A stretch of 60,119 bases of DNA, counting the filler, from Sphacelaria rigidula (lineage: Eukaryota), in assembly GCA_964200075.2 (NCBI GenBank). It is 7 parts of 7 records of this genome, joined end to end, with 100 filler letters (N's around TTAATTAATTAA, not from the genome) between each part and the next. Parts side by side here need not be neighbours in the genome. Positions count along the whole stretch, not along the records: positions 1 to 8,504 come from CAXNAA020010952.1; 6 more parts are not named here. One strand, 5' to 3'. Positions 1,878 through 47,492 of the stretch are shown in pieces. A model generated the notes under the pieces. It worked only from the letters and a program-made list of their open reading frames with translations. It was not told where the DNA came from and did no database searches. The position numbers were made by a program, and so were the translations under genes. Position 1 is the stretch's first letter. Each line of letters starts with the position of its first letter.

Positions 1878-4748
1878 CAAGGTTCCCCTTCGGGAGGTTG
1901 ATACTGGCCTCCCGGGCGTGACGCGAGTCGAAAATATACTGTTGTAGTGCGATTCCTTTTTCATAATATGGAGGCAATTGTGTGGGAGGATTTGTACCTT
2001 CCAGTAGATACTCGTACTGTCACATTTCGCAGTTTCGAATGTCTCAGACCAAGAGTGGCGGCAAGAGCGGTGGACACTTCCAGCATGAAGAGCTCGCTTC
2101 ACGGGCGGTGTGCGGAGGTGAAAAAAACACCATCACGCACGAGACCCGTCACAGCGCACATCGCAAGTGATTGCTACCGAAATAAGGTCGCGTCCCGGTA
2201 GTACACGGCGAACTCGTGCAGGGTTCTCTAAATGCCGGCCAGACCCCGCGCGCACGGATTTCAAATCACACTTGTATACAGTATATATGCATGATATTGC
2301 TTGCTGTCTGTGTGTACGTGGTATACCACCCCTCGCTCTGCCACATCTAGTACAGCGATCGGTGTCACAGCTAAGTGTGCATTCGCCGTAGGTGGCCTAC
2401 GCAAGAGTAATAGGCCGCTGTAATTCCTGCCTGTATCTTGAGCGGATGGTAACACAGCCGCTATGGCGCGCAAGCCGGCTGTAACAATTCATACCGCGTG
2501 GAGATTTCTACACTGTCTTGAAGTCATACTGCGCGCAGTTCCCACTTTTGTACGAATTTTGTGCACGTTGCAGAAGGCAATAGCTTCCATATTGTGCGCA
2601 GTACATGTTTTTAAATTGTATACTCGCTGTAGAAAGCTCTTGTCTGGGGTGTAATACATTTCCATACATATCAGGCGGTGAAATTGTGAAATAAGCAAAT
2701 AATCCACAGCACATGGCCGAAGTGGCAGTGAGGCAATCACCGAAATATTCGCGTGCAAAGCCTGTGCGGCGGTACTCTAAGTTGTTAACGCTAGAAGAAT
2801 ACCAGTGCAATGGCCATTCCGGCTGCCGGCCTGTGCACGGCCGTCCCGGTAATGTTGGGACTGTCTGTACCGGGATGTCGCCCCCAGTGCCAGGTACGCC
2901 GGCAGGGGTCCGCAGCACTACCCACTGGTCGCGCGACAGGAGCTCAATCTTAGACTGTCGAGATTTTAGAAGCGGAAATGTTCAGCTCCCAACCCTCACA
3001 TATATAGCGGACCATAAACGATGCTTATTTGCTGGGTTTCTTCGAGGGTTCGTCCATAACTGGGCGAAGATAGATGATGAGGCCGGCAGGATCCGTCGTA
3101 GCCTGCGTGATCAACTATCACTGTACCCACTCTATCTACAGTAGCCGTCATCAGACAGCAGGGTGTTGAAAAAACAAAATCCCACGCACCGTGGGTATCC
3201 ACCGTACGTATCAATGCACACTGGGCCATCAGCGACTTCCCCTGCTGCAGCTGTGACTGTGACCCCTTCCTCTAATACCAATCTACACATTCTTCAGTGT
3301 TCTTCACGATGCTTTTTTTGTGGATTGTTACGTTCGCATAATTGGGGCACATATTACGCAGATATGACCGTGTTAGAGGCTTCACGTCAAAACTAAATGA
3401 TAAGGGATCTCAGATCATTCGACTTGTGTTTGCTGCTGACTAAGTCAAGGCAATGTTCAGCTGTTTTCAACTGCTTTGCTCTCATGTTCTCGTGACATTC
3501 GCTGCATAACCACTGTCTTCGTGTTCCCAAATCATCGAGAACGCAAAGAAAATCACGGTGAAAACATACCCCGCCATGAGCGGGCTTTTGTGGCTCTTGT
3601 TTGAAGTTTTCGATCTTGGAAAGGCTTTTGTGGTTCGGGATCGACACCCCGCGAAAAAGAGCCAGTGTGGACGACTTCTGATGGCAAGAACATGCGCCAC
3701 AGGTATCAGATGACACCTAAACTCCAACTGTAATGTACCGCTGACCCTCTTTCGTGCACTGCAAAACAAAGCGCGGGCTAAGATGCCTTGCAGCCAGAGA
3801 ACACTCGGCAAAAGTGGTGAAAAATGCGAAATGATACATGTGCATATATTCGTGAGATTCCCGAGCCAACGGCGGTTACTACGATTTGAAACATGTGAAG
3901 ATTGGGTGAAAATTTGGCTTGAAATTCGTACTTTCAATCTCGGAACAGTTTTACGGGCGCTGATTGGTCGATATACCTTTTCGCCCCTAGCGCTACGACT
4001 GTGGCCTTACACACAAATCCGGCTATGTTACGCTCTTCAGCTGTCCATGGCGGTCAGTATGATATCATGAATACGACTACTGGGTAGGTATTACGGAAGA
4101 TATTTGCTGATGACACAATTTTGGGTGATGGGCGTGAACCAGCCTGTATTGGTTATCGATGTGAGACCCTCCTCGTATGGATTGGGAGCATTACACGGGT
4201 CACTGTATTTGGTGGATACAGTAGTGGAAAGTGCTCACGTGCAAAAATACTGTAAGTCGCACAAGTTTTTCCCCAAGTTGCCTCAATTCCGCCCATATCT
4301 GCGTATCCCACTTGCACAATATCGCACACCTTCTACCGCTTCCCTTGCTCTTGTATGTGTGTAAAAAACATTTGCAAGCGTGAAACTCTCAATAGACGTA
4401 CCGAGTACAAGAGTACCCACGACAACTGCCGGCAACGGGCGTCTCAAGTTCGCACTGCTGTATGCCGACGTGCGCTGCATCGCCACCCAAATTGTAGTCG
4501 ACGCGTCGCTTTGCCCTGCTTTACTGGCCTACCGAGCATCATCTCCTTCGCCTTTATCCTTTTTTCATGGAACGTGTTACTGTATCCCCATATCACCGAT
4601 ATTTCTCGCCGTGATGCCATGCTACATTCATTCTCGCAGTCCCGCCAGTTGGAGAACTCACGGTCACAGCCGGCAGAGCACGTCACACTGGACGGTGCGT
4701 GTGTTTTGAGACAACCGCCATCGACTGTTGTACGGGCCTTGAGCTCGA

Positions 4749-6305
4749 GTGAAGAACGAAGTGTACGGGCCGGAGTTTTGCTCCCTGCACGCCGAGGACG
4801 GGATGGTAAAGATCGTCCGTAGAACGTGCTCCCGTGTGGGCTGCTCCAAGCAGCCGTCGTTTGGGTTGGCGTACGGCAGGAGACCTGAGGTGTGCTCACT
4901 GCACGCCGAGGACGGAATGGTGAATGTGGTCACGAAGAAGTGCTCCCGCGCGGGCTGCTACTTTGTACCGTCGTTCGGGTTGGCGGGGAGCAAAAGGCCG
5001 GAGTTATGCTCCCTGCACGCCGAAGACGAAATGGTGAATGTCAAGGCAAAGACGTGCTCCCACGAGGGCTGCCCCAAGCAACCGTCGTTTGGGTTGGCGG
5101 GGAGCAAAGTGCGGGAGATTTGCTCGCTGCACGCCGAGAAGGGAATGGTGAATCTCAACATCAAGACGTGCTCCCACGAGGGCTGCTCCAAGCGACCGTC
5201 GTTTGGGCTGGCGGGGAGCAAAGTGCGGGAGTTTTGCTTGTTGCACACCCAGAAGGGAATGGTGAATCTCGACGGCAAGACGTGCTCACGGGAGGGCTGC
5301 TCCAAGCGATCGTCGTTTGGGTTGGCGGGGAGCAAAGTGCGGGAGTTTTGCTCGCTGCACACCCAGAAGGGAATGGTGAATCTCAACGCCAAGACGTGCT
5401 CTCGGGAGGGCTGCTCCACGCGATCGTCGTTTGGGCTGGCGGGGGGCAAAAGGCCGGAGTTTTGCTCGCTGCACGCCGAGGATGGAATGGTGAATGTGGT
5501 CACGAAGAAGTGCTCCCATGCGGGCTGCTACTTTGCACCATCGTTCGGGTTGGCGGGCAGCAAAAGGCCGGAGTTTTGCTCCCTGCACGCCGAGGATGGG
5601 GTGGTGGGTCTCAGGGCGAAGTCGTGCTCCCGCGATTACTGCTCCAAGCGGCCGTCGTTTGGGTTGGCGGGGAGCAAAGTGCGGGAGTTTTGCTCGCTGC
5701 ACGCCGAGAAGGGGATGGTGAATCTCGACGTCAAGACGTGCTCCCGCGATGGTTGCTCCAAGCGGCCGCTGTATGGGTTGGCGGGCAGCAAAGTGCGGGA
5801 GTTTTGCCCGCTGCACACCCAGGAGGGAATGGTGAATCCTCACGTCAAGACGTGCTCCCGCGAATACAGCTTGAAGGAGCCGATGTTTGGCTTTGCGGAC
5901 AGTAGAAAGCCGGAGTTCGGCAAGAAGCATGCCAAGCAAGGGATGGTCGACGTCTGTCTCGGGAAATACGTCACATCAGCAGCCCATCGTTCAGAGAAAC
6001 CGGCGAGTCGCTCAGAGGTAGTGAAACTAGAGATTGCTGCGCAACAGTCTGACGGTGAGGAAGGATATGCAATACGGCCACCCATGGGCACGAAGCGCAG
6101 GTCCGAGCAGGCTGTGCATTCAAACAGCAGCACCATTTCAAGGAGAGCTAAGCTAGCCCACACGACTGATGGACTAGTTCCGGCGCAAGTCGCTCGTGGC
6201 GCAATTACCACAAGGATGTTACTGTGCCGGAGTGGAGCAAATGTCAAGCCCGAGGTAACCATTTCACCGTACCCTTCGTCCGTGTCGGCTTCACGTCAGA
6301 AGTAG
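4749..6305 (+). CDS. EsV-1-7 cysteine-rich repeat protein (9 complete 38-aa C-x4-C-x16-C-x2-H units, an N-terminal half unit, a degenerate 10th unit and a basic C-terminal tail)
   Basis: Consensus CSxxGCSKRPSFGLAGSKxxEFCSLHAExGMVNxxxKT matches the EsV-1-7 motif of brown algae and phaeoviruses. First in-frame ATG is 4803; the true start is uncertain. Confidence 0.92.
   Translation: MKNEVYGPEFCSLHAEDGMVKIVRRTCSRVGCSKQPSFGLAYGRRPEVCSLHAEDGMVNVVTKKCSRAGCYFVPSFGLAGSKRPELCSLHAEDEMVNVKAKTCSHEGCPKQPSFGLAGSKVREICSLHAEKGMVNLNIKTCSHEGCSKRPSFGLAGSKVREFCLLHTQKGMVNLDGKTCSREGCSKRSSFGLAGSKVREFCSLHTQKGMVNLNAKTCSREGCSTRSSFGLAGGKRPEFCSLHAEDGMVNVVTKKCSHAGCYFAPSFGLAGSKRPEFCSLHAEDGVVGLRAKSCSRDYCSKRPSFGLAGSKVREFCSLHAEKGMVNLDVKTCSRDGCSKRPLYGLAGSKVREFCPLHTQEGMVNPHVKTCSREYSLKEPMFGFADSRKPEFGKKHAKQGMVDVCLGKYVTSAAHRSEKPASRSEVVKLEIAAQQSDGEEGYAIRPPMGTKRRSEQAVHSNSSTISRRAKLAHTTDGLVPAQVARGAITTRMLLCRSGANVKPEVTISPYPSSVSASRQK
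4827..5966 (+). repeat. 114-bp coding tandem repeat, 10 units
   Basis: Units start with TGCTC at 4827, 4941, 5055, 5169, 5283, 5397, 5511, 5625, 5739, 5853. Confidence 0.97.
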
Positions 6306-8504
6306 TTGGTGCTACTCATGATGAAGGTGCTCGATAATTATGTAGGCAGGTGGTGGTGTGATGTGTCCCTCAACGTCTTGAGTTTCACTGCCATCTAGGG
6401 ATCATTCTGAGCAGGCATCTGAGGAGCACACTAGGCACCCGGGGATCACGCTTTTGTCACGCAGAAACCGGTCTTGTTCCGCGTGATTGGTAACGTATGG
6501 ATATTCTTGCTCAGTTTACTGATTCTCGTGGTGGTGCAGCTTTTCGTTGGTGTTATACGCGAGGGAAGTGCGGGTGTTGCCGTACCTGCCGATGTAAGCA
6601 ACACTCGATCGAACGATCGACGCTTTTTGGGGAGGGTGTGCGAAGGGCAGCATACCACCTACGCCATCAATGATCCTTCATTACACAGCGCATGTTTGGG
6701 GGTGGATATTCCACCGAAGGACACTTGTGTTTTCGCGGGTAAATTTTTACTCTGCCGGGTTCCGTGAGACATATCCATCAAACCGTGAGCAGATGATTTT
6801 CGATGGGGTGCCATTCATGCATCATTGTCGTCGTGACGATGGTGGTGAAACCATGTTTTGCACTTGGCAGGGTAGCGCTCAACCCAGGCGGCCGAGGTTG
6901 ACCCCCAACGCATCTTGCTATCTCCGCTTCAACGGATCCAAGTACGCTATGCGCATTACGCGATTATAAGGTCCAATACGTACTGCTGATAACCGGCCTG
7001 GGAACCGGCGACAGCAGCAGCAGCGACTACGAGGCCGTATGAAGTATGCGATGTTTGAAGGCTTGGGGCAGTGTTCAGAGAAATGTAGGTGGTCGTTTTT
7101 GACGACTGTGAGATACTGGGTTCGTGCGCTTTTTGAGCGCACGAAGGACATGGGCTTGACCCGATTTCAATCGTGATTGACCCGTCCACGAAGTTTTGCT
7201 TATTTACATACATGTACCGTAAGCGAAAACGGGTGATCACAAGCAGATGGTGCTTTTCACGGCAGCAAGATTGTGGGTAGTCCACCAGAGCTTTCTTCAA
7301 GCAAAAAGTGGCCCAACATGACAAAGTGTCTCTCTTGCTTGCCCTGAACTTATTTCCATTCACGAATTTCCGATCTCGACCGTTGTTGGCGTGGACAACA
7401 ATGTTTTCGTGCACCGTAGAAGATTCACGTTGATTTTTTTTGCCTCGTGCAGAACGTCGCGGACAGTGGTAGCGTGGACTGGCCAGAAGCGACGAGGTAT
7501 ACCTTGTCTTGCGCAGACTGCATGGCAACAGCATCACCATGCAGGAGGACTGGTTTTGCGCAGATCCGCGCGCTCCGGTCGAATTTCAGGTATTTGACAT
7601 CTAACATACCAGGGGGTATCTACATGACTGTGTGCTTGGCGCAATCTGTGAAGTTGTTGCTGACGTATGCTTTTTCAGTTGCAAAAGGGTGGACTCGCCA
7701 CTCTTCAGAGTATTGCGAGATCTTGCAGCGGAAATGCCGTTATTGTGATCGTGGCCAACGAAAAACGTGTATACCGAGCACACCCTCGACAATATAAACG
7801 ATAGTGGTCTATTGTCAAATAATAGAGGCGGGGGAAACCTATCGATGTACAGTGTCGAACATGGGAGATCACGTATGTATGAGTGTAATTAACATTAGAA
7901 TACACATGTAAGCCGGAGAAACAGTCTCAGGAACGGGGTTCGCCAGTGGCATACGCAAGCGGACCCGAAACGTTCAAACCTGTGGAACTTGATATTTGGC
8001 AACCTAGGCAACGGGGTCTCCGGTAGAGAGAGCTCAGAACAATAGAGCCACCGCATGAGCCCTGGTTGAACGTCGCCGATACTGCCATACATGCTCGTTA
8101 ACTTCTTCTTGCCTACCATCGGTCGCGGCCACATCCTTGCCTAAATGACAAGAGAGATAACTACGTCTAGCTTTGGAGATCCTTCGGCAGCAGGGTACAA
8201 CAACGTCCTTCGTCGGAACCCGTAACTCTACAGCAGTCGAGACCTAGTCCACACGACGAATGGTGGCATCAACTGCATTTGCGAATGAATTCGGGCACAA
8301 CCTGGCTAAATCGTATCTTTGACTCGAACCGCACGACTCACACTACTTTGGAGATATCTTGAACCGTGCATTTTTCCACAAATGCGACCTGTGGGCCAGC
8401 GCGCAATTTTTTTCAATATTATTCTGCCATTCCATTCAGGCAACGGGTGGCATGAATGTTTCAACATGCTACACATGTAAAATTTTCGTCTCATTATCGG
8501 AACC

Positions 8505-31443: not shown

Positions 31444-32039
31444 ATGCTGCTTGTCATACTGAGCTACGGAGGTACGTCGGACTGTACCATTGTACAACTC
31501 ACCGTGAATGTTCTCTACCCGCACCCTCCGCAACTATTTTAGTTGCCTGCTGATCACTGGCTACCGGTGTACCAGACTACTAGTTAGTTGTCACCACCAA
31601 ATAGGTTACTGTACCCTCAAACGGCCTGTGTGCTTGTTTTGCTGTGCGCGTAGCAGGGTTTGCGACAGCTTGAAGAAGGTCAATCGTGACTAGTCTTTAG
31701 CCAAAGCTCTTTTTTTGTCCAAGGGCATCCCAAAAAAACTCTACTTTGGTGTTGGTCTAGATGCACAGAAACGTTCGTTTTCATGGGCGGACGATCCTGG
31801 TTTACACAGGGTACGCTCCTTTCATAGCTGAGTATTCTGTCGTCATGCTGTCTTTGCTAGTGCAGGGCTGAAGATATGCACCATATCCTCATGTTTATGG
31901 CCTGTAAAAAGCCCTGGTCAATGAAATAGGAACGCTGCGGCGCAGCTGCTTTCACACTCTGAAAGGACGCCCCCGTGTCTGGTATCTCTCGGCGTCAGCA
32001 CTGTACAGGCAGTACGCAGTCCTGTACAATCCATGTCGA

Positions 32040-33125
32040 TTGAAATAATATAAAGGGGTAAGGCACAAATATGCAAGATGGATGTGGTCCTAAGAGACTC
32101 GTATCTAGATACTAGGATCAAGATATGTATCATGATTCATGCGATTGCACCGAAGCTGGCATATGCAGGAGGAGTATGGGAGGGAAACGCGAAGTTGGTT
32201 AAGAATCTGGAGACAGTACAGATGGCAGCAGCTGAGAAAATACTTGGATGCTCAAAAACGACGAGCGATAAAGCATTGAGAGCACAATTCGGAATGCACC
32301 CACTTGAAACAGAGACACGAGGAAATTGAAATGGCAATATAACGTAAGGCTTATGGCAAGAAAGAGATTGTCAGCCCTAGTTGATGAGGCTGTATGGCAG
32401 AAAGTGACGAAAGGGCAGGCTGGAATAAGGTGGAATATCGTAGTCGAGATATTATAAAGGATATAGGAGGAAACCAAGACGAGATAATGTCCGTAGGTGA
32501 AGGTGGGGGGCTCAAGACAAAAGTAAGAGACAAGATAAAAATAAAATAAAAATAAACGCTGAGAAGCAAAGTAGACGAGGAAGAACACCTGAAGATACAC
32601 GGGGGGGTGAAAGACGGGATAGGGATGAAACCGTATCTGCACGGTACAATGGACTCCACGAAAAAAAATGAAACTGCGATTTCGGGTGGGGGACCTGGAC
32701 CTGCCGGAGAATAGAAGGAGATGTACCAGTAGTCGAGTGGAGGAGGAAGTAGATGCACATGAGTGCTCCCGTGGTAAAGCAATAGAATAGAACTCATGAA
32801 GCGGCAGCATGTGAGCCACGCAACGAGGAATGGGACGTGTTAGAGGGGGAAATGCGGGACGTAAACGAAGGTGGCATAAAGTCGTTTGACAGATAAGACA
32901 CTAGGAAGAAAGCGATGGCCATACTAGGAGATGGATGGTGGCCAGAAACGGCGAAACAGGAAGGGGATAAGATGTATAAAAAGTTTTTGTGTAACGTAAG
33001 GAATAAACGTGATGAGCGCCGGAATGTTGGAGGTGTCTCTTGTAGGCGTAGGAACGGCGCTCCGTCTCGAAAGGGATGCGCGGTCAATGGTCAAACGACT
33101 GAGGCAAGCAACAAATGAGTACGTC
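32040..33125 (+). mobile_element. Decayed LINE ORF2, C-terminal half and 3' end
   Basis: PKLAYAGGVW...LETVQMAAAEKILGCSKTTSDKALRAQFGMHPL (post-RT region); frameshifts; ends ATGAGTAC plus a C-rich tract. Confidence 0.85.
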
Positions 33126-33169
33126 GCCCTCCCCCCCTCTCATCTGCAAGAGTAAGGAGAGAGGCCCAC

Positions 33170-34180
33170 GCAAGATGCCTATCGTGTAAAACTGCGGTAG
33201 GATTGGAGGAGTGTACTAAAAAGAAGTAAAAAATATGGTGGACGAGAAAAAGAAGGAGTATGGGAAGATATAGTGAAAAAAATAAATGAAGATCTCGACA
33301 GCGGGATGAAGTAAATGTGGGTAGGGATAGGAGGGGTAATGGGTAACAAGGCAGGAAATATAGGCAAGGGGATAACCACACTACGGGCGCAGAACGGTAG
33401 AATGGTTAGTAGTTGGAAGAGGAAACGAGAAGTGCTAGTAGAGCACTACCGTAAACTAGGAACAAAAACTGACAAGACGTTCGACACGGAATTCGAAAAA
33501 CAAATCAACGCGTGGGCAGAGGCAAATGTAGAGGCGTCAAAACGGGACGATGGTGGCTCGAAAGAATTGCAGAGAGAGATTTACCAGAAAGGAAGTAAAG
33601 GAGTATGTAGCTGAACTCAAGAACAGAAAGGCAGCAAGGGCAGACAGCGAAGTGCATGGATTTCTAAAGCTCGGTTGAGAGGGAAATTATTACCATGATG
33701 GTTATGCTGCATAGCTAGATATGGGGAATACGAGTACACACCCCAAGAGGTGGAGAGAAGTAGTAGTCAACCTCTTGAAGAGTGGAGACAAGGCTGACCA
33801 AGGGAATTATAAAGGAATAGCTGTACTTAGTACCGTAGGGAAAAAATTATGTAAGATTCTTAACGATAGAGTGGGAACGATGTTCGAAAAGGAAGAAAAA
33901 AACAGCGACGGGAAAGCAGGTTCTAGACCAAACTGTAGTCGCGTATACCATGTGTAGACTAGGTAGGATTATTCAAAGTAGGAAAGGCGCCGGGCTGACA
34001 ACGAACTCTTTATTTCTGAACGTTTAAAAGGCCTATGACACAGTATGGAGAAATGTGTTGTGGAAAAATATGTGGGAAACTGGGATCAGAGGAAAGATGT
34101 AGAGAATGGCGAAGAAGATGACAGAATGTGCCACAAGTGTTGTGATGCTAGTCGGGGAAGTATCGAGATATTTTGAGTTA
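33170..34180 (+). mobile_element. Decayed LINE ORF2, N-terminal RT region
   Basis: LKNRKAARAD, PKRWRE, GNYKGIAVLSTVGKKLCKIL and KAYDTVW (RT domains 0-3), with stops and frameshifts. Confidence 0.85.
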
Positions 34181-45316: not shown

Positions 45317-45609
45317 CACGGGTGGCCACTGGGATCTGTAACCTGGCCATTTTGGTACCTTATCCACCTTTGGTAAGATCCGCGGATTAGGTGGACAACT
45401 GAAGAGCATTCGCACAGCATGGACAGGTTCGAAACAAAGCGTGTTCCAGTCTACGGGGGAGTCACCCGCCTATAGACTGGGACATGATTTGTTTTGAACC
45501 TGTCCATGCTGTGCGAATGCTCTTCAGTTGTCTACCCAATCCGCGAACCTTACTAAAGGTGGATAAGGTCTCAAAATGGCCAGGTTACAGACCCCAGTGG
45601 CCACCCGTG
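45317..45609. mobile_element. Foldback MITE (about 137-bp arms, TA TSD) inside the gypsy RNase H
   Basis: CACGGGTGGCCACTGGG...CCCAGTGGCCACCCGTG; removing it and one TA restores MQDTSNMLTRW. Confidence 0.93.
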
Positions 45610-47492
45610 TATCTTGCATGTTATACAAGTATGTAAGAGGTTGATGGTCTGTATGACACGTGACATTTTGACCCCACAAATATGGTCTCCAGTGTACAAA
45701 AGAGCAGACAACAGCAAGACATTTTTTTATAGTTGGGCTGTAATGGCGTTGGCTTTTAGAAACGCGTTCGCTATAATACCCCACTATATCGATTTCTTTA
45801 CCGTCGACACTATCCTTGCGTGGCTGAGCTAAAAAACCGCCTACGCCAATGTCGGAAGAATCGGTATGAACTACAAATTCTCTCGAAAAATCAGGAAAGG
45901 GTAGGACAGGGACAGAAGCTAGCACTTGTTTAATTTTCGTAGAGGCTGCGTCTTGTGCTGTACCCCAAGCTCTCTTAAAATTTCTTTCAGGGGCAAATTC
46001 TTTGCGAGTTAGATCAACGAGTGGTGCTGTGATGTCAGCATAATCTTTGACAAACGCCGGACAAAATTGTGCATGCCCAAAACTGATCTGAGATCTTTGA
46101 TGCATGTTGGCGTGGGCAGCTTTTGGGTGGCTCCTATGCGATTGTTGCTGGCATAAACTTCTTTCGCAGAAATAATGTGTCCGAAGTTATTCAATTACTT
46201 TCTATCCGAATTGAATTCTCGATGGTTTTAGAGTCAAGCCTACTGCTTGAAGGACTGAAATTTTTTTATCCAATGATTGAAGATGATTTTCAAATGTGGA
46301 ACTGATACAAATTAAATCATCCATGTATGACAGAACACCAGATTCGGGGCCAAGATGACCCAGAGCCATTGACATCATATGTTGGAAAGCCAAGGTGGAT
46401 TGCATACTCCAAAAGGCATACGCTTAAAACAGTACTTGCCGTTTGGTGTGACGAATGCAGTCCGGTCTACATGTTCTTCGGCCACTGGAATTCGTCAGAT
46501 TGCGCTGAGGACATCGCATGCAGTAATGTATACAGCTTCACCCACTGCGCCAAGGCAAGATTCAAGATTTGGCATGGGTCAACTCTTGCGGACAATATGG
46601 CGGTTAAGAGTGTGACGATAATCGACGCAGAACCGTGGACTACCATTGTGTTTAGCTACAATGGTAGATGGGCTACCCCACGAGCTTGGTCTTTTTTCAT
46701 TAATATCCCAATCCAGCATTTCCTTGACACATTTGTCAATTACTGCGGAAGCACGTGGGTTCGGGCGATGAAGAGGTCTGTCTACAGGACGAGTATCAGG
46801 GGGGAGAGGAAAAGTTGCCTCTGTAATAGTACAACGACCTAATTCTGACATAGACATAAAAAAACCAGGTCGAAATTTAGCACACAAATTTAGAGCAGAC
46901 GCCTGTTGGTCGGTGGTACGCGTTGTCGTTGAAAGTGCTTTGGATAAAGGACCTTACAGTTCTGATCTTGCATGCTTGACTTCTTGGGCTGTCTGTGGAG
47001 TTCTGACGACTGCACTGACATTGATTTGTTTTGGAGTTGTGACTGTAACTGTGAACAGGAGTCCGAGACATAGTCCTGCATGCAGAGCTACATCATCTGT
47101 AGATGGGTTGGCTATTTGTACAGTTACAGACCTATCCGATGCTCTCCACGTAGAGAGAGTGCGGGCTATCACAATATTCTCGAATGGTATCAGTTGTGGG
47201 CCATTTGAAAATGCATCCTCAGTTATTATTCGCGGCTCGATTAGTACTGTACAGTCTTCAGGTGGAAGATAATCTGTAAACCTACTGCAAGAGCTTCGTG
47301 CATTTGTTTTAAATTTACACGTTCACACAGAGTAACCTTAATTGCCTCAGCATTGCCATTGACGGTAGCTACAGATTTCGAGGAGAAATTTGGTGCTGTA
47401 GGATAGGCACTAGTGTGACGTTGTGTAGCAGTATTTTCGCCATGAATAGCTGGGATTGACAGACCCGTTGATGTGAAAGAAAGTGTTTGATT

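Follow-up and report, generated by a model that had tools for sequence, protein, structure and literature searches.

The longest open reading frame (ORF) in a 60,119-nt stretch of DNA from Sphacelaria rigidula (hereafter the window; all coordinates count along the whole of it) encodes a tandem array of EsV-1-7 repeats. We propose, with a probability of about one half, that the ligand of this array of zinc modules is nucleic acid, probably DNA, and that the surface contacting it includes three residues differing from unit to unit, at position 9 and at the adjacent positions 35 and 36. The question can be approached from three sides: these positions carry most of the differences between units in independent young arrays, they are constrained between close relatives, and in many giant-virus genomes arrays of the same family are joined to nuclease-like domains.

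The encoded protein, P0001, matches the Pfam family PF19114 (EsV_1_7_cys) in 11 stretches with 465.9 bits (cut-off 25; E 2.6e-143), and no other Pfam domain was found in it above threshold. It shares with the family the C-x4-C-x16-C-x2-H pattern, the head-to-tail period of 37-38 amino acids (aa) and the predicted fold of the EsV-1 protein, and the window gene is a member of the family by each defining feature that could be tested. One study regards EsV-1-7 proteins as a possible new zinc-finger class, counts 2018 of them in 31 genomes, and credits the Ectocarpus protein IMMEDIATE UPRIGHT (IMM) with five repeats and a unique N-terminal domain (10.1101/2024.02.19.579948). According to a second study, none of the Ectocarpus members has another Pfam domain (10.64898/2026.04.27.720984). 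By the published accounts, no orthogroup of brown-algal genomes is larger than that of the EsV-1-7 genes, among which IMM is a developmental regulator. Compared with the five repeats reported for IMM, P0001 has nine intact units and one degenerate unit. Its units are unusually alike, so that the variable positions stand out.

As the first-pass annotation of this DNA had claimed, residues C1, C6, F/Y12, G13, C23 and H26 are intact in all nine 38-aa units. A degenerate tenth unit lies beyond them. The description of the array as basic and of C3H type also holds, its isoelectric point (pI) being 9.35, and its spacing is regular, with a period of 38 aa throughout (37 and 38 dominate in the family). 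The candidate zinc ligands C1, C6, C23 and H26 are present in 36 of 36 instances, and each unit would be predicted from this pattern to bind one zinc. Column identity among the units averages 78%, with 12 invariant columns. The tenth unit scores 28.6 bits against a hidden Markov model (HMM) of the unit, compared with 75-84 bits for units 1-9, and its DNA is 56-66% identical to that of the others.

The residues listed by the annotation were recovered exactly: units 1-9 read VT, KA, NI, DG, NA, VT, RA, DV and HV at positions 35-36, and SKQ, YFV, PKQ, SKR, SKR, STR, YFA, SKR and SKR at positions 7-9. The per-position entropy that it had suggested computing is highest at 35 (2.50 bits) and 36 (2.20 bits), followed by position 4 (1.84) and position 9 (1.66); positions 4, 9, 22 and 29 likewise vary in this array. 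Six distinct codons are used at position 35 and seven at position 36. On a tree of the units, codons 35 and 36 underwent six and five amino-acid changes, compared with at most four at any other codon.

Units 1 and 6 pair with each other (83% nucleotide identity), as do units 2 and 7 (85%), and units 3, 4, 5, 8 and 9 form one young group (83-92%). Shifted against itself, the array is most alike at 570 bp, an offset of five units (identity 0.804, against 0.792 at 114 bp), which points to the duplication of a five-unit block in the history of the array. Part of the variable pattern is therefore inherited from block duplication, and the nine units are not independent.

Between units, codons 35-36 change at or above the silent rate. 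Outside these codons, the proportion of nonsynonymous differences (pN) is 0.171 and that of synonymous differences (pS) 0.245 over all unit pairs, and 0.090 and 0.157 within the young group. At codons 35-36, pN rises to 0.608 when all pairs are taken and to 0.401 within the young group, where it is about 2.5 times pS. The unit tree places 11 changes at the four obligately replacement sites of these two codons, against 0.95 per third position (Poisson p 0.002), and a tree-free minimum count gives 7 changes against 0.71 per site (p 0.026). A neutral rate from strict four-fold sites, of which there are only four, was not relied on.

Recurrence and constraint among relatives

Two homologue searches returned 59 and 55 proteins, in which P0001 has no close relative (best matches 46-56% identity, the top one 56% over 31% of the query). 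After mapping 968 units with an HMM, we measured mismatch within arrays on 369 clean units from 52 arrays; the window array was excluded, as was every unit that missed C1, C6, C23 or H/C26 or had fewer than 35-36 mapped positions. Position 9 shows the highest mismatch (0.84), ahead of 35 (0.78) and 36 (0.77); next come positions 7 and 25 (0.72) and positions 2, 4 and 29 (0.67-0.68). A set of 15 non-redundant young arrays, from which P0001 (the query) and P0030, P0142 and P0125 (close relatives of kept rows) had been dropped, gave mismatch values of 0.84 at position 9 and 0.74 at 35/36, where the background is 0.30 (Wilcoxon p 6e-5). In 13 of these 15 arrays position 9 ranks among the top three, as position 35 or 36 does in eight, and reading the arrays by eye agrees with this.

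Judging from these alignments, the variable dipeptide at 35-36, together with position 9, is a recurrent feature of the family and not a peculiarity of the window gene. The annotation had singled out 35-36 and the patch at 7-9. The dipeptide and, within the patch, position 9 do recur in young arrays, but position 9 is the most variable; 35-36 is neither the sole variable site nor the foremost one, and in older arrays many positions differ. In 143 of 167 unit pairs, 12 residues separate H26 from the C1 that follows, and the difference between periods of 37 and 38 sits in the C6-C23 loop (core length 25 in 64 pairs and 26 in 99). The family prefers V, R, K or I at position 35 and S, N or H at position 36, and K or R at positions 8, 18, 19 and 37. 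At ligand position 26, C replaces H (giving C-x2-C) in 164 of about 960 mapped units, P0006 providing an example; this count includes near-identical cluster members.

Within 16 groups of close relatives, positions 35 and 36 changed at 0.179 and 0.194 events per site, compared with a mean of 0.135 over all unit positions and 0.210 outside the units; the values for positions 9 and 29 are 0.299 and 0.365. Unit-to-unit difference correlates with this rate across positions (Spearman 0.65), and when the former is regressed on the latter, the largest positive residuals fall at 35 and 36 (z 2.2 and 2.1). Position 29 is the fastest between relatives, yet it differs less from unit to unit than 35/36 (0.48 versus 0.74; Wilcoxon p 0.003, Fisher p 0.004). 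In three pairs of Ectocarpus proteins, all 22 residues at 35-36 in 11 units are unchanged (P0049, P0057 and P0060 were left out of the protein-pair comparison).

For 18 independent giant-virus gene pairs, the pN/pS values of positions 35 and 36 are 0.60 and 0.47, with a maximum of 0.77 at position 25, and the arrays evolve faster than the remaining protein (pN 0.130 versus 0.067, at pS 0.38-0.39). Positions 35-36 are thus under purifying selection between close giant-virus relatives. Taken together, the data fit residues that come to differ between units and are then kept, and not a free linker, with modest effect sizes; the linker reading is disfavoured because of the viral pN/pS, the conservation in Ectocarpus and the contrast with position 29. 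The annotation had itself raised the objection that these residues might be a neutral linker, and the junction turns out to be neither variable in length nor neutral in the viral pairs. The comparison of replacement and silent changes that it had proposed came out mixed: constraint at 35/36 was found in the viral pairs, whereas the replacement excess within the S. rigidula array is not robust.

A further domain follows the array in many relatives. ExDExxH and RxNPD motifs, preceded by a C-x2-C...C-x2-C stretch, occur after the array in 27 of the 59 homologues, and the E, D, E, H, R and N columns of this domain are invariant. Neither motif was found in P0001, whose tail carries no recognised domain. 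A scan of IMG/VR with P0013 as query yielded 166 relatives among 177 candidate stretches, of which 78 loci were kept; on these giant-virus loci, 80 of the 81 array ORFs have both motifs, the exception being cut by a contig end, and the number of units ranges from 1 to 11 per ORF. Some loci hold two array-nuclease genes a few kb apart (L035 at 102 and 4010, L029 at 3989 and 6640).

When a model of P0009 (443 aa; predicted local distance difference test, pLDDT, 84.5) was searched with Foldseek, the top rows were all PD-(D/E)xK nucleases, including BstEII, McrC, Hjc and the R2 endonuclease (best E 4.2e-3). A second look with VIA gave Vsr (1cw0_A) at Z 6.3, with a root-mean-square deviation (rmsd) of 4.0 and 109 aligned positions, and 29 chains at Z of at least 5. 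By these moderate scores, the C-terminal domain of the relatives is a candidate Vsr/PD-(D/E)xK-like nuclease, and several of the viral array-nuclease proteins bear the UniProt name 'Endonuclease'. Such proteins are homologous to P0001 at E 1e-54 or better (for example P0009, P0012 and P0013) and share with it the repeat, its fixed spacing and the overlapping variable positions 9, 35 and 36. They differ from it in having N instead of G at position 13, mostly K at position 35, and the C-terminal nuclease-like domain that P0001 lacks. A Tc1/mariner transposase with an N-terminal EsV-1-7 domain has also been reported (PMC12477816). Our search of the literature, whose scope did not include the founding paper (Macaisne et al. 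2017), found nothing on EsV-1-7 nuclease fusions or on variability by position.

One homologue, P0048 of Klebsormidium nitens (524 aa), holds three EsV-1-7 units, a leftover RYNPD without ExDExxH, and then a TFIIB repeat. Either a virus-type gene has been fused here to a domain from a transcription factor, or two genes were merged in the gene model.

Predicted structure and known systems

An AlphaFold2 model of four units reached a pLDDT of 87.4 and a predicted template-modelling score (pTM) of 0.48, so that confidence is local only and does not extend to the arrangement of units. The model consists mostly of strand and coil, with short strands at positions 12-14 and 31-33 of each unit, a bridge residue at position 22 and a single helical turn of three residues (DSSP). 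Two of the three junctions also have single bridge residues at position 38 and, in the following unit, at position 9 (residues 76/85 and 114/123). If these bridges pair, positions 9, 38 and 36 would lie on one face of the junction, a geometry read from the secondary-structure string only.

Compared with the Protein Data Bank (PDB), the four-unit model gave no Foldseek row at E 0.001 or below, and with VIA-align the best Z was 2.4 over 48,161 chains, which shows neither a new nor a known fold. Its weak rows include RING domains (Z 2.1-2.4) as well as PZP/PHD and the coronavirus nsp13 zinc-binding domain (Foldseek E 1.4-6.4). In the PDB sequences, P0001 had no match at E 10 or below, and the unit profile had one chance row (E 1.4). 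The homologue P0004 has a Pfam match to CoV_NSP13_ZBD at 24.9 bits, under the cut-off of that family. The top Foldseek match in BFVD is the EsV-1-7 protein of the virus EsV-1 (Q8QNQ2; E 4.2e-16, TMq 0.76, 47% identity, rmsd 3.5 over 148 columns), both structures being predicted models. The next matches come from pithoviruses, marseilleviruses, a cedratvirus, klosneuviruses and Tetraselmis virus 1, and several of them are named Endonuclease.

The annotation had likened the array to transcription activator-like effectors (TALEs), the units of which are metal-free helical hairpins of 33-35 aa with one variable pair at residues 12-13. This likeness is one of analogy only, consisting in near-identical tandem units whose differences are concentrated in two adjacent residues; it fails on fold, on repeat length and on the number of variable sites. 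The units of P0001 have 38 aa, C3H ligands and strand and coil, with three recurrent variable positions and more in older arrays, and P0001 shows neither a Pfam match to TAL effectors nor a fold match to them in the PDB searches.

Arrays of C2H2 fingers, in which the DNA-contact residues are the variable ones, offer a closer functional analogy. In arrays such as those of KRAB-ZNF proteins, each module holds one zinc, as predicted for the EsV-1-7 unit, and both kinds of array combine a basic residue conserved at the junction with a few variable positions per module. The two systems differ in ligand spacing (C-x4-C-x16-C-x2-H versus C-x2-4-C-x12-H-x3-5-H), in period (38 versus 28 aa) and in fold. 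The C2H2 pattern is absent from the units, P0001 has no Pfam match to zf-C2H2 at E 1 or below, and its Foldseek rows to the fingers of WT1 are at chance level (E 5 and 9).

In the plant SBP domain (SPL factors), the first zinc site has the same spacing, C-x4-C-x16-C-x2-H. This is a lead at most, and membership in that family was rejected: PF03110 scores only 10.5 bits (E 0.8, cut-off 27; residues 27-60, in unit 1, against profile positions 1-34), and neither the sequence search nor the fold searches of the PDB brought up an SBP chain. A different plant motif, PF24906 (Zf_WRKY19, 24 positions), matches the first 11-13 residues of the unit at 31-36 bits in the brown-algal proteins P0116, P0125 and P0141, which suggests that the land-plant Zf_WRKY19 motif and the EsV-1-7 motif may be related families.

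Gene model and window context

The array locus is an intact nuclear gene of a brown-alga-type genome. Its ORF (4749-6305, plus strand) has 518 aa, compared with 305 aa for the next longest, and the window as a whole reads like eukaryotic nuclear DNA since it holds only 27 ORFs of at least 150 aa in 60 kb. An HMM scan of the entire window found EsV-1-7 units in the array ORF only. The features of the locus are collected in Table 1.

Table 1. Features of the EsV-1-7 array locus in the S. rigidula window
Feature	Position	Strand	Remarks
Junction to foreign sequence	~4637-4640	+	cag followed by tccc, acceptor-like
Probable 5' untranslated exon part	4640..4802	+	two in-frame stops, no ATG; three-frame translation
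Partial unit 0 (repeat positions 13-38)	4749..4826	+	last 8 codons only inside the proposed coding sequence
114-bp tandem array, 9.6 copies	4768..5863	+	Tandem Repeats Finder: period 114, 81% matches, score 1146
Proposed coding sequence	4803..6305	+	500 aa + stop: MVKIVRRT, units 1-10, 112-aa basic tail
Nine intact 38-aa EsV-1-7 units	4827..5852	+	start of unit k = 4827 + 114(k-1)
Codon 9, units 1-9	4851..5765	+	at 4851 + 114(k-1); second variable site
Codons 35-36, units 1-9, six bases each	4929..5846	+	at 4929 + 114(k-1); most variable pair
Degenerate tenth unit	5853..5966	+	C6 to S, C23 to G
C-terminal tail, 112 aa, pI 10.27	5967..6305	+	no recognised domain; stop codon at end

Translation probably starts at the ATG at 4803, the first in frame after the last in-frame stop, which corresponds to the conserved M31 of the truncated unit 0; the Pylaiella homologue P0022 starts in matching register, with MVNVRSRK and then C. 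In partial unit 0, the unit HMM aligned 4770-4817 to model positions 20-35.

Contigs of three runs from one study, guessed to be RNA, start matching the window at 4637 and carry before that point 98-131 foreign letters that are absent from 3800-7000; a 24-letter piece of this foreign sequence had no match in the window at up to two mismatches. In a DNA-like run, one contig is unbroken across 4120-4797. There is thus a hint of a spliced 5' leader upstream of 4637, because of the contig starts, the acceptor-like site, the unbroken DNA-like contig and the absence of the foreign piece from the window. Stretches left uncovered in the three guessed-RNA runs (4228-4636 and parts of the array) were not counted as evidence. 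The contig pieces that match the array are mostly 95-99% alike and come from paralogues, and the three runs also carry pieces of its 3' part. Each of the four runs also has a contig that connects 4927 with 5640 through 28 other letters; it probably stems from a shorter paralogous array of the same organism and not from a variant of this locus.

Directly upstream of the gene, contigs of the DNA-like run add up to a depth of 18,000-102,000 at 3800-4227, compared with about 71 in single-copy flanks, which points to a repeat of very high copy number, and many loose contig ends fall at 3846-3849 and 4147-4149. A retroelement remnant with a reverse-transcriptase RNase H-like domain (PF17919, E 5e-26) at 45524-46105 on the minus strand is the sole other recognisable coding remnant of the window. 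Strand asymmetry is strong at 32001-34000 compared with the rest (GC skew 0.334, AT skew 0.330), and an (AAC)n microsatellite of 39 copies at 18866-18984 lies within a 237-codon ORF that has no Pfam match.

Ligand of the array and rival explanations

We suggest that the array grew by recent duplications of single units and of a five-unit block, most of each unit staying alike. The contrast between units lies chiefly at position 9, which directly follows the first zinc knuckle, and at positions 35-36, which directly precede the knuckle of the next unit. Meeting at the unit junction, these residues may form the unit-specific part of a ligand-binding surface, the ligand of which would most likely be DNA. 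Arrays of variable length fused to a nuclease or transposase are the usual place of DNA-targeting modules, and DNA is preferred here because of such fusions in relatives and because of the basic charge of the array. By analogy with these relatives, DNA may also be the ligand of the window protein, and the protein could read it unit by unit. Modular DNA recognition by EsV-1-7 arrays is plausible as a hypothesis; that the variable junction residues amount to a reprogrammable code, as the annotation had proposed, seems doubtful to us.

It is tempting to go further and place EsV-1-7 arrays next to C2H2 fingers and TALEs, as one more class of natural proteins that read DNA in modules. Each 38-aa unit would then contact a short piece of DNA through its own position 9 and through positions 35-36 of the preceding unit, and the targets of the viral array-nucleases would be set by the number of units and by their junction residues. 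Brown algae might have domesticated the array alone as sequence-specific regulators, and the window gene would be such a regulator, whose units were duplicated not long ago and whose junction residues are still diversifying. We rate this extended scenario, with all of these steps, as rather improbable.

A number of observations weigh against DNA binding through these variable residues. Within the S. rigidula array, the replacement excess at 35-36 is not robust and fits a simple lack of constraint: in the four pairs of block duplicates, pN at these codons is 0.266 against a pS of 0.246 for the rest, a ratio of 1.08, and with two codons in nine related units, diversifying selection and lack of constraint are inseparable. 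Variability is also not confined to the three positions, since eight of them (2, 4, 7, 9, 25, 29, 35 and 36) reach a mismatch of at least 0.67 in the 52 arrays. In nuclease-coupled viral arrays, positions 4, 9, 11 and 8 are as variable as 36, and 110 of 221 units have K at position 35. Positions 29, 9, 28 and 25 outpace 35-36 when close relatives are compared, and in the pair P0026/P0030, 9 of 12 residues at 35-36 have changed. Mutual information between positions 35, 36 and 38 and positions 7-11 of the next unit is no different from a same-unit control. As to the nuclease, the fold match of P0009, obtained with the whole 443-aa model as query, is moderate (none at E 0.001 or below, none at Z 8 or above), and the C-terminal domain of the relatives matches no family in Pfam (E 10 or below), PHROGs or NCBIfam. 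The TFIIB repeat of P0048 could equally point to protein contacts. Finally, the ligand of the window protein could differ from that of its viral relatives because P0001 has no nuclease, transposase or other domain.

One possibility is that positions 35-36, and position 9 with them, are the least constrained surface positions and play no part in specificity, the ligand being read through conserved residues. The block-duplicate ratio is what such relaxed positions would give, the Pfam model ends at position 35, unit-to-unit difference follows the rate between close relatives across positions, no position of the viral genes exceeds a pN/pS of 0.77, and several of the changes lie in CpG contexts by our own reading of the codons. 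We nevertheless consider this explanation unlikely: it sits poorly with the pN/pS of 0.60 and 0.47 at 35 and 36 in the viral genes, with the 22 of 22 unchanged residues in Ectocarpus, with position 29, which is faster between relatives and less different between units, and with the restricted choice of residues (V/R/K/I and S/N/H) at a fixed spacing. Alternatively, the array could be a scaffold that binds proteins or another non-nucleic-acid partner, as LIM, RING and PHD modules do, with junction residues tuning the choice of partner. Fusions to a nuclease in 27 of 59 homologues and 80 of 81 viral ORFs, together with the published transposase fusion, argue against it, as do the strongly basic array and the preference for K/R at positions 8, 18, 19 and 37. 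The structural rows in its favour are zinc modules used mostly for protein contacts (RING, PZP/PHD and nsp13), and they are far under significance; it is also favoured by the sub-threshold CoV_NSP13_ZBD match of P0004, by the three units and TFIIB repeat of the Klebsormidium homologue, and by IMM, the sole genetically studied member, to which the literature assigns no known biochemical function. We would call a protein scaffold unlikely as well.

That the array is a decaying or non-functional EsV-1-7 duplicate, its pattern having no functional meaning, seems very improbable. The truncated first unit, the two in-frame stops just upstream and the degenerate tenth unit would suit such a copy, as would the lack of a close relative (56% identity over 31% of the query at best), the retroelement fragment in the window and the high-copy sequence just upstream. 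On the other hand, the frame is 518 codons long against 305 aa for the next longest, 36 of 36 ligand residues are intact, pN is below pS outside codons 35-36, and contigs of three runs, of guessed kind, carry the 4637 junction and 3' pieces.

Our preferred reading thus remains an array of zinc modules that contacts DNA partly through its junction residues. If binding turns out not to be modular, the array would be an example of tandem repeats that diverge first at their least constrained surface positions. If it is modular, this would explain the expansion of the EsV-1-7 family and would provide a new zinc-based scaffold for sequence recognition.

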